From: a virus
Taxonomy: Duplodnaviria; Heunggongvirae; Uroviricota; Caudoviricetes
DNA length: 4,265 nucleotides
Virus record (IMG/VR): IMGVR_UViG_2534681999_000005
Reading direction: 5' to 3' (one strand)
Shown: positions 600 to 4,265 of the stretch, piece by piece
How positions within the stretch are numbered: position 1 is the first letter of the stretch
Layout: the number at the start of each line of letters is the position of its first letter
The notes under the pieces: model-generated
What the model saw: only the letters and a program-made list of their open reading frames with translations
Told to the model about the DNA's origin: nothing
Databases searched by the model: none
Program-made: the position numbers and the translations under genes

Positions 600-632
600 A
601 TCTGAGAAACGATTTTGTCGGAGGAAATTTTA

Positions 633-1349
633 ATGGAAACCGTATCTGACGCACTGAAAGCACTGAAAAGAGCCTCTTCACATGTGGTGGCAGCTCGCCT
701 TGGAATTAGTCGTGAAGAGGCTGTCAACGAACTGTGGAAACTGAAACGCCGTGGAGAAGCGGATAACAAGGGGGCGATATGGTGGCTGACTCAGGCTGGT
801 GAAAGTGAACCGGTGTCACCGGTACCGAAAGTGACGGCGCAAATGCTGACAGAGGCGATTGAACAACATGGCCCACAAACGGCGGATGAACTGGCATTGA
901 TGTTCGGAATTACCTCCCGCCGGGCGAATTCATCGCTGGCAATGGCAATCAGCAAAGGGTGTCTGATTCGCGTGAATCAGGATGGTAAATTTCGTTACTG
1001 CATACCGGGCGTTGATTTACCGGCAGAGCCGAAAGCAGCATCCGTAGCTGAAACGGAGGGTAAAGCCCTTCCTCAGCCAGCTGGTGTTGCGTTACCAGTC
1101 CAGGAAACGGCTGCACAGGAAGAAATTAAAACAGAAGCGGTGGAGGACATTGTGAAGTTGCAGCAATCGTTCACTGAAGCGAAAGCAGATGACCTGATTC
1201 TACCATCGCTGCATGTGGCTAACCGCGAGCTGCGCCGGGCGAAAAGTAATGTTCAGAAGTGGGAGCGAGTCTGTGCTGCGCTACGGGAACTGAACAAACA
1301 CAGGGATATTCTCCGGGATATTACCGCCACCAGAGAGCAGCAGCGGTGA
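633..1349 (+). CDS. Hypothetical prophage protein (238 aa) with two winged-helix-like segments and an acidic coiled-coil-like C-terminal half
   Basis: Seen: ATG at 633 preceded by GGAGG (620-624) at 8-nt spacing; the TTG at 615 from the ORF track has no SD. TGA stop at 1347-1349. HTH-like segments: [24 protein letters not shown] and [32 protein letters not shown]. Family not recognised with certainty. Confidence 0.6.
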
Positions 1350-1663
1350 GTGGCTGGAAGAAGTGGCGCTGGGCTGAAATCCTGATACTCCGGCAGTGTG
1401 CGGGAACGATGAGAGTCGAAAGCATCGGTTATCTGATTGGCCGTAGTGAGTCAGCCGTCAGGACGAAAGCGCGGGAACTGGGTATCAGCATGATGTTACG
1501 GGGTGATTATCACCAGTCAGCCAAATGTTCACAGCGTGATATTGAGCTGGCGTGGCAACTGCATCAGCGTGGTGTACCCCGACGGGAAATTGCCGAAAAG
1601 TTTGGGATGAAGTTGGGCGCAGTGAATAACTACGTTTATTTCGACAGGAGGGTTCAGGAGTGA
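1346..1663 (+). CDS. Small DNA-binding protein (105 aa) with two tandem GcrA-like HTH repeats
   Basis: Seen: GTG start at 1346 overlaps the upstream TGA stop (GTGA), suggesting translational coupling. The ORF-track ATG at 1259 would overlap the upstream gene by 91 nt and has no SD; the ATG at 1409 would cut off the first repeat. Repeats: W-x2-W-x2-E...[17 protein letters not shown] and [27 protein letters not shown], resembling the GcrA N-terminal HTH pattern (from memory). Start is uncertain between 1346 and 1409. Confidence 0.5.
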
Positions 1664-1962
1664 GGGTGAGGGTTTATATCGCCGGTCCGATGACGGGATA
1701 TGAAAATTTTAACCGCGAGGCATTTCACAAAACGGAAGAGGTGCTGAAACGGGAAGGGCATACCGTTTTAAACCCGGCAGTACTTCCGGACGGGCTGACT
1801 CAGCCACACTACATGGATATTTGCATGGCAATGCTCCGTTGCGTGGATGCGGTTTACATGCTGAAAGGCTGGCAGCAGTCGGCAGGTGCAGGGGCTGAGC
1901 TGGCACTGGAGGAGAAACCGGGCCATGCGGTGATTTTTCAGGAGGTGGGCAGTGAATATTGA
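1660..1962 (+). CDS. DUF4406-like protein (nucleoside 2-deoxyribosyltransferase-like fold), 100 aa
   Basis: Seen: GTG at 1660 overlaps the upstream TGA (GTGA), with AGGAGG-like sequence 8-14 nt upstream. The N-terminal motif VYIAGPMTGY, followed by NPA...and GW.QS.GA..E, matches what I recall of the DUF4406 / N-deoxyribosyltransferase-like family common in enterobacterial prophages. Not search-verified. Confidence 0.65.
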   Translation: MRVRVYIAGPMTGYENFNREAFHKTEEVLKREGHTVLNPAVLPDGLTQPHYMDICMAMLRCVDAVYMLKGWQQSAGAGAELALEEKPGHAVIFQEVGSEY

Positions 1963-2269
1963 CCCGGCGATAACGATTGATATGGCCCTGAACGCCGGCC
2001 TGGCACTTCTTGGTTATTTCTACATTATGTTCTGCAGCGGACGATGGCTGTCACTGTTGTTCATGAAAAAATGGAATAAACGCCGTAAGCAGGAGCAACG
2101 CCAGAAGGCAATGGATGCATTTTTCGAAGCCTTCGGAATTGACGGCATGGAACCAGGGGATCCAGCTCGCGCAATCAGCAGAGGGGGTGTAGTAATCCTT
2201 GTATATCGGAGTGAAGAGAAAAATGACGATCACAAAACAACGTGTAGAAGAAATCATATCCCGCATTGA
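1952..2269 (+). CDS. Small membrane-anchored protein (105 aa): one hydrophobic helix followed by a basic/charged region
   Basis: Seen: GTG at 1952 with GGAGG (1941-1945) 6 nt upstream; it overlaps the preceding gene's end by 11 nt. Hydrophobic segment ALNAGLALLGYFYIMFCSGRWLSLLF, then KKWNKRRKQEQRQK. The 3' end overlaps the next gene by about 47 nt and that tail looks low-quality, so the gene's reality and extent are uncertain. An alternative start is the ATG at 1982. Confidence 0.4.
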   Translation: MNIDPAITIDMALNAGLALLGYFYIMFCSGRWLSLLFMKKWNKRRKQEQRQKAMDAFFEAFGIDGMEPGDPARAISRGGVVILVYRSEEKNDDHKTTCRRNHIPH

Positions 2270-2540
2270 AATGTATGGACATGGTGCAGGGTATATCGCA
2301 GACGAGGTTAATGATCTGGCTATACTGGCGCTGAATTTATCAAATATCGCGAACCTGAAGCGATACGAGCTTGATATGGGAGGTTGCGACTCGTGCGGTC
2401 AGGATTGTGGCGCTGATATGACTGAAGATCCTGATGGTGATTATGTCCTGTTTGATGACGTGGTTAAGTTGTTTGAATTTGATACAACCACTCAAAAGTT
2501 AGAAATCCCGGCAAAGGAGGCAGCCAGTGGGCAAGATTGA
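2223..2540 (+). CDS. Hypothetical acidic protein (105 aa) with a Cys cluster (CDSCGQDCG)
   Basis: Seen: ATG at 2223 with GGAG/GAAGAG purine-rich sequence upstream; TGA stop at 2538-2540. In-frame alternatives are TTG 2199, GTG 2211 and ATG 2271. 2223 is preferred because the resulting N-terminus (MTITKQR...YGHG) parallels the N-terminus of the 185-aa protein at 3160. Confidence 0.5.
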   Translation: MTITKQRVEEIISRIEMYGHGAGYIADEVNDLAILALNLSNIANLKRYELDMGGCDSCGQDCGADMTEDPDGDYVLFDDVVKLFEFDTTTQKLEIPAKEAASGQD

Positions 2541-2965: not shown

Positions 2966-3157
2966 ATGAACGGACAAATATCAATTGTTCGACCAGGAGC
3001 ATGTGACGATCGCGAAATACGAATGATTATTCGTCTGGCGATGGGGAAAACAATAACTGCTCTCATTACTCCAGAAAATCTCGCATTAGCATTAACAGGA
3101 AAGTCAGACATGCCAGTAGAGCTAAAGCTGCGAAATGTTGAGATTAAGGTGAAATAG
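2966..3157 (+). CDS. Hypothetical small protein (63 aa)
   Basis: Seen: ATG at 2966, one nt after the upstream TGA, with GGAGAG 6 nt upstream; TAG stop at 3155-3157. No recognisable family. Confidence 0.5.
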   Translation: MNGQISIVRPGACDDREIRMIIRLAMGKTITALITPENLALALTGKSDMPVELKLRNVEIKVK

Positions 3158-3159
3158 CT

Positions 3160-3717
3160 ATGACCACTATTACCAAAGATCGACTGCTGACAATCCAGCA
3201 TTGGCGCGAAACATACGGACCGGGTAGCAACGTTGTGCTTCCAGCAGAAGAAGCGGAAGAGCTGGCACGGATTGCGCTGGCATCACTGGCAGCAGTATCG
3301 GATGAACGAGCAGCCTATGAATTATTTATGGAGAAGCGTTTCGGAGAATCTGTAGATCGCCGCAGAGCAAAAAATGGCGATAGAGATTACATGGTATGGG
3401 ATATGGCGCTTGGCTGGATTATCTGGTGTCACCGCGCCGCCATGCTTCAGGCTGGAAACTTTCGGGAAAATAAGGGTTCGTCAACCAATAATTTTCGGAT
3501 AATCTCGGAAACGTCAACCAACTCTCCGGCAATCCCTGATGAGGTGTTGTCCGCAATCCTGAAGGTCGCCAGGCTTCGTGCAGATTTCGATGCTTCTGAA
3601 GTGGACAGGCGAGGTATCGGTAGTTGTCTGGATGAGGCCGAGCAAGAACTTATCGTTACCATTAACGAATACGCCAGTCAGATCGCAGTAGAAGCGACAC
3701 AGGGGGAGAACCAATGA
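3160..3717 (+). CDS. Hypothetical prophage protein (185 aa)
   Basis: Seen: ATG at 3160 with AGGTG (3147-3151) 8 nt upstream; TGA stop at 3715-3717. The N-terminus MTTITKDRLLTIQHWRETYGPG resembles that of the 2223 gene. No family recognised. Confidence 0.6.
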   Translation: MTTITKDRLLTIQHWRETYGPGSNVVLPAEEAEELARIALASLAAVSDERAAYELFMEKRFGESVDRRRAKNGDRDYMVWDMALGWIIWCHRAAMLQAGNFRENKGSSTNNFRIISETSTNSPAIPDEVLSAILKVARLRADFDASEVDRRGIGSCLDEAEQELIVTINEYASQIAVEATQGENQ

Positions 3718-3999: not shown

Positions 4000-4017
4000 T
4001 GCTGCGGGTGCTTGAGG

Positions 4018-4053
4018 CTGTCTGCCTCGGGCATGCCACCGTAAGGCAGACAG
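4018..4053 (+). other. Stem-loop in the hok leader: perfect 10-bp stem with a 16-nt loop
   Basis: Seen: CTGTCTGCCT (4018-4027) is the exact reverse complement of AGGCAGACAG (4044-4053). No U-tract follows on either strand, so this is a structural RNA element rather than a terminator. Confidence 0.45.
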
Positions 4054-4059
4054 AGAAAA

Positions 4060-4126
4060 GCCCCAGTTAACATTACGCGTCCTGCAAGACGCTTAACATT
4101 AATCTGAGGCCCAATCTATGCTTCAC
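4060..4126 (-). ncRNA. sok: Candidate Sok-like antisense RNA, antitoxin of the type I hok system (boundaries approximate)
   Basis: Inference from established hok/sok organisation: Sok is a roughly 60-70 nt antisense RNA covering the mok translation-initiation region. A promoter-like element on the minus strand would start transcription near 4125, opposite the mok-like ATG at 4118. No canonical terminator was identified, so the 3' end is a guess. Confidence 0.3.
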
Positions 4127-4265
4127 AAACGTAGGTTAGCCTCTTACGCGCCGAAAGGCAAGGAGAAGCAGGCTATGAAGCAGCAAAAGGCGATGTTAAT
4201 CGCCCTGATCGTCATCTGTTTAACCGTCATAGTGACGGCACTGGTAACGAGGAAAGACCTCTGCG
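4118..4265 (+). CDS. mok: mok-like in-frame upstream start giving a 19-codon N-terminal extension of hok (MLHKRRLASYAPKGKEKQA-MKQQK...); partial
   Basis: Seen: ATG at 4118 is in frame with the hok ATG at 4175, with no intervening stop, and GAGG lies 8 nt upstream. From memory: this resembles the in-frame MokC extension of chromosomal hokC (ML...KVKEKRAMKQHK). Confidence 0.4.
   Translation, partial: MLHKRRLASYAPKGKEKQAMKQQKAMLIALIVICLTVIVTALVTRKDLC
4133..4161 (-). promoter_or_regulatory. Candidate sigma70 promoter for the Sok-like antisense RNA
   Basis: Seen on the minus strand: -35-like TTGCCT (complement of 4156-4161), 17-bp spacer, -10-like TAACCT (complement of 4133-4138). The most conserved -10 positions (TA...T) are present. 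Confidence 0.3.
4175..4265 (+). CDS. hok: Hok/Gef-family type I toxin (HokD/RelF- or HokC-like), first 30 codons; 3'-truncated by the window edge
   Basis: Seen: ATG at 4175 with AAGGAG (4160-4165) 9 nt upstream. Translation MKQQKAMLIALIVICLTVIVTALVTRKDLC matches, from memory, the N-terminus of E. coli HokD/RelF and is very close to HokC/Gef (MKQHKAMIVALIVICITAVVAALVTRKDLC). The ORF runs off the window. Confidence 0.85.
   Translation, partial: MKQQKAMLIALIVICLTVIVTALVTRKDLC

Follow-up and report, generated by a model that had tools for sequence, protein, structure and literature searches.

The window, meaning the whole stretch of 4,265 nucleotides analysed here (Caudoviricetes, IMG/VR record IMGVR_UViG_2534681999_000005), is 99% identical across 95–96% of its length to a prophage common to many Escherichia coli O157:H7 genomes. 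In RefSeq, the matching Rac-like lambdoid prophage of E. coli O157:H7 SS52 adjoins potC and carries an integrase, an excisionase, racR, a YdaT-family gene, a DnaT-like replication gene and a lambda-P-like gene; the genes of the window (Table 1) are those that follow 3' of the lambda-P-like gene in this order. They are densely packed, with overlapping stop and start codons, and the “accessory operon” of the preliminary description is therefore a fair name for this early-right region. Promoter-like and terminator-like sites occur in the window no more frequently than in shuffled sequence. The best explanation of the setting is that the gene encoding a DUF4406 protein, the subject of this analysis, lies just 3' of the replication genes and belongs to the early operon of this Rac-like lambdoid prophage.

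Table 1. Genes, sequence elements and protein motifs in the 4,265-nt window
Feature	Position	Strand	Evidence or remark
DUF1627 gene	615–1349		DUF1627 domain at the C-terminus
Small helix-turn-helix (HTH) gene, 5' of the DUF4406 gene	1346–1663	+	RefSeq CDS; weak HTH Pfam matches, PHROG 323
Shine-Dalgarno-like AGGAGG	1646–1651	+	8 nt 5' of GTG1660; read from sequence
Second AGGAG	1656–1660	+	5 nt 5' of the alternative in-frame GTG at 1666
DUF4406 gene	1660–1962	+	ORF list, Pfam, RefSeq CDS
YIAGPMTG	1675–1698	+	Strand 1 and the following nucleotide-binding loop
LNPAVLPDGLTQPHYMDIC	1768–1824	+	Loop and helix 2, specific to the family; near-invariant P39, P43, Y51
SAGAGAE, the putative S-x-G-A-x-x-E active-site motif	1879–1899	+	Translation, conservation, alignments
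DUF4752 membrane-protein gene, 3' of the DUF4406 gene	1952–2269	+	Pfam DUF4752, 7.5e-39
Hypothetical gene	2223–2540		PHROG 3126
Ead/Ea22-like gene	2527–2964
63-aa ORF	2966–3157		PHROG 1222
DUF551-like gene	3160–3717
Small membrane ORF	between the DUF551-like gene and the hok/sok module
Complete hok/sok type I toxin-antitoxin module	4006–4265		Rfam sok RF01794 at 4006–4180, 116 bits, E=6e-27

On its 5' side, the DUF4406 gene is joined to the small HTH gene, whose stop codon overlaps the DUF4406 start in the tetranucleotide GTGA at 1660–1663, suggesting translational coupling between the two genes. On its 3' side, the GTG start of the DUF4752 gene lies 11 nt ahead of the DUF4406 stop codon. Further upstream, the N-terminus of the DUF1627 protein gives weak winged-helix matches (MarR, TrmB and Crp-like HTH; PHROG 633 and 1687, “transcriptional regulator”), which suggests that this protein is DNA-binding. 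The DUF4752 ORF and the hypothetical gene that follows it overlap by 47 nt in different frames, and both are annotated in RefSeq. The 63-aa ORF has a further match to the final 35 positions of PHROG 11564, “DNA methyltransferase” (E=6e-06); it could be either a remnant or a small module that methyltransferases share. At the right end, the Hok/Gef toxin ORF, named hokD in RefSeq, starts at position 4175 and continues past the end of the window. Searches with NCBIfam returned no match for the DUF4406 protein or its neighbours, and the PADLOC defence models none for the DUF4406 protein or seven neighbours.

The DUF4406 ORF encodes 100 amino acids from a GTG start to a TGA stop at 1960–1962, and the evidence that it is a real gene is far beyond chance. 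Its protein matches Pfam PF14359 (DUF4406) over residues 4–92 and profile positions 2–90 of 91 (E=2e-33; 115.1 bits against a gathering score of 22), confirming over the full length the assignment made earlier from the YIAGPMTG motif, which is present near the N-terminus as residues 6–13. PHROG 355, “nucleoside 2-deoxyribosyltransferase”, is matched at 4e-43, and the Pfam search gave no match to PF05014 at E<=1. At the same coordinates RefSeq lists WP_001310212.1, “DUF4406 domain-containing protein”, from E. coli O157:H7 SS52 (99% DNA identity). The protein is thus already known as a member of a catalogued, uncharacterised family, and the gene adds nothing to the catalogue, since the exact protein is in RefSeq under the DUF4406 name. 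It had been described as minimal, but about 100 amino acids is the family norm (the Pfam model has 91 positions) and the size is not special. Most homologues begin MK(I/V)YIAGPM, a start that aligns with a second in-frame GTG at 1666; each of the two GTG codons is preceded by its own Shine-Dalgarno-like sequence, and, given the homologue alignment, translation may begin at either 1660 or 1666.

An exhaustive HMMER search places the DUF4406 family at 9087 clusters at 50% identity (E<=1e-3), and temperate phages infecting Enterobacteria, Vibrio, Arthrobacter and Mycobacterium contribute many of these. Nine family-invariant residues, G9 (in the YIAGPMTG loop), F22, P39, P43, Y51, S74, G76, A77 and E80, are all present in the window protein, and each is conserved in at least 97% of 136–147 DUF4406 representatives as well as in two further alignments. 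The median pairwise dN/dS of 0.11, calculated over 55 distinct alleles found on enterobacterial prophage contigs, indicates purifying selection and led us to reject the possibility that the gene is a pseudogene or decaying remnant, despite two unusual substitutions (A84E and L87P relative to the family consensus). These lie at 1912–1920, where the O157:H7 allele reads ALEEKPG in place of the consensus ALAEKLG; 113 of 119 representatives have Ala at position 84. The site falls within the helix that makes the dimer interface in DNPH1. The substitutions are probably tolerated, as the AlphaFold2 model still predicts helix 75–85 with good confidence and the allele is widespread.

The surroundings of the gene are far less constant than its sequence. 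Among related IMG/VR loci, the 5' position is held by the HTH gene in only part of the cases and otherwise by another gene, and the 3' position by DUF4752, by an Ead/Ea22-like gene (directly adjoining in many prophages) or by another gene. In Vibrio, Arthrobacter, Pseudomonas and Mycobacterium phages, the DUF4406 gene lies among unrelated early replication, recombination and DNA-methylation genes. A conserved operon partner was accordingly rejected, and the varied or unrelated neighbours indicate that the gene behaves as a free-standing cassette in DNA-metabolism regions.

Fusion to a second domain was considered as a further source of functional information. Twenty long DUF4406 representatives (190–358 aa) contain no second Pfam domain. 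Several phage proteins carry GenBank names that would imply a fusion, “MazG-like pyrophosphatase” (Tweety19 gp28, Orisa01) or “deoxycytidylate deaminase” (Orcanus gp52); all are plain DUF4406 proteins of 122–124 aa. The mislabelled phage genes (L004 2504–2872, L006 2480–2854 and L005 2657–2785) match only DUF4406 and, weakly, PF05014 in Pfam, and the apparent MazG-like and dCMP deaminase fusions were rejected as annotation errors. A recurrent two-domain form does occur in mycobacteriophages, exemplified by Mycobacterium phage Milly gp55 (L087 2048–2806), a protein of 252 aa with DUF4406 at residues 151–243; its N-terminal 150 aa match PHROG 15484, “hydrolase”, and have no Pfam or PDB sequence match. 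In addition, two BFVD entries with a DUF4406-like fold, A0A6J5LQ71 (216 aa) and A0A6J5S4N9 (462 aa), bear the name “dATP/dGTP diphosphohydrolase N-terminal domain-containing” and could be fusions with a MazZ/MazG-type dNTP pyrophosphatase. If real, these candidate fusions would fit a pathway leading from dNTP to dNMP and on to free base and deoxyribose 5-phosphate.

A confident AlphaFold2 model built from 30 homologues (pLDDT 88, pTM 0.82) shows alternating strands and helices, with the chain stopping directly past the last strand. Searching the PDB with this model through Foldseek returned as the top match the Trypanosoma brucei nucleoside 2'-deoxyribosyltransferase (NDT) 2A0K (E=1.4e-4, TMq 0.73), with further NDTs, human DNPH1 and MilB ranking next; in the fold comparisons NDT, MilB and DUF1937 scored above TIR. 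A PDB sequence search with the single window protein gave chance matches only, and a family profile was required: the profile of 54 diverse DUF4406 members matched 2A0K at E=9.7e-5 and, weakly, the CMP N-glycosidases BcmB and BlsM. The protein is thus predicted to adopt a three-layer alpha/beta Rossmann-like fold of the N-(deoxy)ribosyltransferase-like superfamily, with NDT, DNPH1 and MilB as its nearest neighbours.

The sequences of human DNPH1 and Lactobacillus leichmannii NDT were checked against the PDB and aligned by hhalign to the DUF4406 family profile. These matches to single sequences are not significant alone (E=0.11); at every residue, the mapping they give coincides with that of the significant 2A0K alignment and with those of BlsM and BcmB. 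Glu80 occupies the nucleophile position of T. brucei NDT, BlsM, BcmB, DNPH1 (Glu104) and L. leichmannii NDT (Glu98), is Glu in 135 of 136 representatives and is the predicted catalytic nucleophile. Tyr6 corresponds to NDT Tyr7 and DNPH1 Tyr24 (Y in 123 of 143 representatives, F in 18). Ser74, which like G76 is kept in 137 of 138 representatives, aligns with DNPH1 Ser98 and with the Ser of SPGTHxE in MilB, BlsM and BcmB; in NDT the same position is Asp92, the Asp of PDCGTAFE in 2A0K and 6QAI. The position of the general-acid Asp (NDT Asp72, DNPH1 Asp80) is taken by Cys55; Cys is also the commonest residue there across the family (98 of 145 representatives, against 19 with D and 8 with T). The kinetoplastid PDT-type sequences 2A0K and 6QAI carry Asn there, and if the L. 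mexicana enzyme (6QAI) is an active purine deoxyribosyltransferase, loss of the Asp alone would not equal loss of catalysis. Asp63, equivalent to NDT Asp80 and DNPH1 Asp88 and conserved in 105 of 142 representatives, likely has a structural role. The LNPAxLPDGL..YM.IC segment (1768–1824) probably serves to recognise the base, Tyr51 being placed a single turn of helix away from Cys55.

The explanation we prefer, tentatively and with slightly less than even confidence, is that the window protein belongs to the DUF4406 branch of the NDT/DNPH1/MilB superfamily and works on its own as a nucleoside-5'-phosphate N-glycosidase, by covalent catalysis. Membership of the family, the predicted fold, the conserved Glu, Tyr and Ser and the purifying selection are results of the analysis; from them we infer the chemistry, the preference for a phosphorylated substrate and the physiological role along the following lines. 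The substrate would be of the (deoxy)nucleoside 5'-monophosphate type, bound through its 5'-phosphate to Ser74 and the GPMTG loop. With Tyr6 orienting it, Glu80 would make a nucleophilic attack on C1' and so form a covalent (deoxy)ribosyl-5-phosphate–enzyme ester, and water would then resolve the ester and release (deoxy)ribose 5-phosphate, so that overall the N-glycosidic bond is hydrolysed. For the phage, this would mean a nucleotide pool that is edited or cleaned while its DNA replicates.

Two features favour a hydrolase over a transferase. Members of the superfamily that act on nucleotides differ from those that act on nucleosides by an Asp-to-Ser switch at the 5' position, and Ser74 stands at this phosphate/5'-OH discriminating position, pointing to nucleotides rather than nucleosides and making the “transferase” label doubtful. 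In addition, the acceptor-base site, which in transferases comes from the partner's C-terminus, is missing, which favours a DNPH1- or MilB-like hydrolase. Against the N-glycosidase stand the replacement of the general-acid Asp by Cys55, with no conserved acid at that position in the family, and the ending of the chain past the last strand without the helical extension that supplies Ser128' in DNPH1 (PMC10603095). The C-terminal segment of NDT is also absent, so that the phosphate and base pockets are incomplete by comparison with the characterised enzymes, and the alignments to single DNPH1 and NDT sequences count against it in being non-significant by themselves.

Each alternative draws on part of the same evidence. 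PHROG 355 and many phage annotations name the protein a transferase, and a true nucleoside 2'-deoxyribosyltransferase, swapping bases between deoxynucleosides for salvage through a covalent intermediate at Glu80, would account for the conserved Glu and Tyr and for the fact that the best Foldseek and profile matches are NDTs; 2A0K and 6QAI, moreover, likewise lack the Asp at the Cys55 position. We nevertheless consider this unlikely, given that the Asp binding the nucleoside 5'-OH (D92 in 1F8X) is replaced by an invariant Ser, that the protein matches PF05014 nowhere at E<=1, and that it ends at residue 100, too early to include the C-terminal segment from which the partner's base-acceptor site is made; Cys55 at the Asp72 position weakens the case further. 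The small size and the incomplete active site, with neither general acid nor partner-subunit extension, also speak for a non-catalytic nucleotide binder, a sponge or regulator keeping only the binding pocket of the fold, and inactive members of the TIR-DrHyd-SLOG class do serve as nucleotide sensors (PMC9503650). The near-invariance of Glu80, Ser74 and Tyr6 across divergent clusters is an enzyme-like pattern, however, and makes such a binder improbable.

Close structural neighbourhood to TIR domains raises a different substrate class: the enzyme might instead cleave NAD+, NMN or an immune signal or trigger that is derived from NAD or is a nucleotide, by TIR-like or retron-NDT-like N-glycosidase chemistry, and serve in phage counter-defence or prophage defence. 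Retron NDT-like effectors deplete NAD+ (PMC13276650), NADases are found among DrHyd domains (PMC9503650), and the missing general acid would matter less if the leaving group needs no protonation. Yet NDT, MilB and DUF1937 outscore TIR in the fold comparisons, the locus has neither a PADLOC defence-model match nor a partner gene, a 2022 survey of viral NAD-ADPr gave only ARC-type DrHyd domains as NAD-related in viruses, and a constitutive NADase would be a cost to the phage, so that we regard this reading, too, as unlikely. A bolder proposal, to which we give only a slim chance, is that DUF4406 as a whole is widespread phage counter-defence and not pool salvage, cutting the base off a nucleotide-type immune signal or trigger. 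Its substrates could be an NAD+-derived messenger, NMN or NAD+, or a damage-derived dNMP such as m6-dAMP, which activates PUA-Cal-HAD, and in that case the open, acid-less phosphate-binding site would be adapted to them.

The cautious interpretation of the preliminary description is supported. The NDT-like fold it anticipated is matched by the model, and the catalytic Glu whose conservation it had asked about is nearly invariant, although its acidic partner, the Asp, has given way to Cys55. The statement that no role is established for the family agrees with the literature, in which no functional study was found for DUF4406/PF14359, for N-deoxyribosyltransferase-like phage proteins or for YtoQ; the subject of a 2025 preprint on a dZ-phage NDT is PF05014, not DUF4406. 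The suggested contribution to DNA modification found no support in the analysis. What the analysis adds is a sharpened prediction, namely N-glycosidase action on nucleotides and not base transfer between nucleosides, drawn from a pattern in which Glu and Tyr are kept, Ser stands at the phosphate position, and both the general-acid Asp and the C-terminal extension are absent. The names given to DUF4406 members at present are inconsistent between phage records (transferase, MazG-like, dCMP deaminase, hypothetical); if the prediction were confirmed, thousands of annotations would be corrected and a common route to nucleotide-pool editing in temperate phages would be identified.

The TIR NADases and the NDT-like effector of retron Ec86 score below NDT and MilB, and in contrast to them the window protein is encoded by a phage, outside any defence operon, and carries neither a sensor nor a partner domain. 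DUF1937 (1T1J, a Pseudomonas aeruginosa hypothetical protein) shares 18% identity, belongs to a separate Pfam family and is functionally uncharacterised as well. The CMP and hydroxymethyl-CMP N-glycosidases MilB, BlsM and BcmB (4OHR, 4JEM, 5VTO, 4JEN) give weak profile matches (E 0.07–1.5); unlike the window protein, they are 160–190 aa long, come from antibiotic biosynthesis clusters and retain the Asp at the Cys55 position, as seen in the BlsM alignment. Among the NDTs (L. leichmannii 1F8X, T. brucei 2A0K, L. mexicana PDT 6QAI), 2A0K is the best match by both sequence profile and Foldseek, shares an identical YIAGP with the window protein and aligns with it at the catalytic Glu and Tyr. The catalytic Glu98 and Tyr7 of NDT (PF05014, EC 2.4.2.6) are matched by E80 and Y6, whereas its 5'-OH-binding Asp92, six residues ahead of the Glu, is Ser74 and its Asp72 is Cys55. 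The C-terminal third of NDT, a segment that completes the active site of the neighbouring subunit, is missing, residue 100 of the window protein aligning at about residue 112 of 157 in 1F8X.

DNPH1/Rcl, the 2'-deoxynucleoside 5'-phosphate N-hydrolase (8QHQ, 8QHR, 4P5E, 2KHZ), is about 70 residues longer than the window protein, and its helical element with His56 and Glu55 is absent from the latter. Its catalytic triad is formed by Y24, D80 and E104, and S98 holds the substrate phosphate jointly with S128', which comes from the helical extension of the partner subunit (PMC10603095). The window protein has Cys55 in place of Asp80, leaving the triad incomplete, but it keeps the Tyr and Glu. Of the phosphate pocket, the equivalent of S98, Ser74, is present and nearly invariant, and the helical extension is absent.
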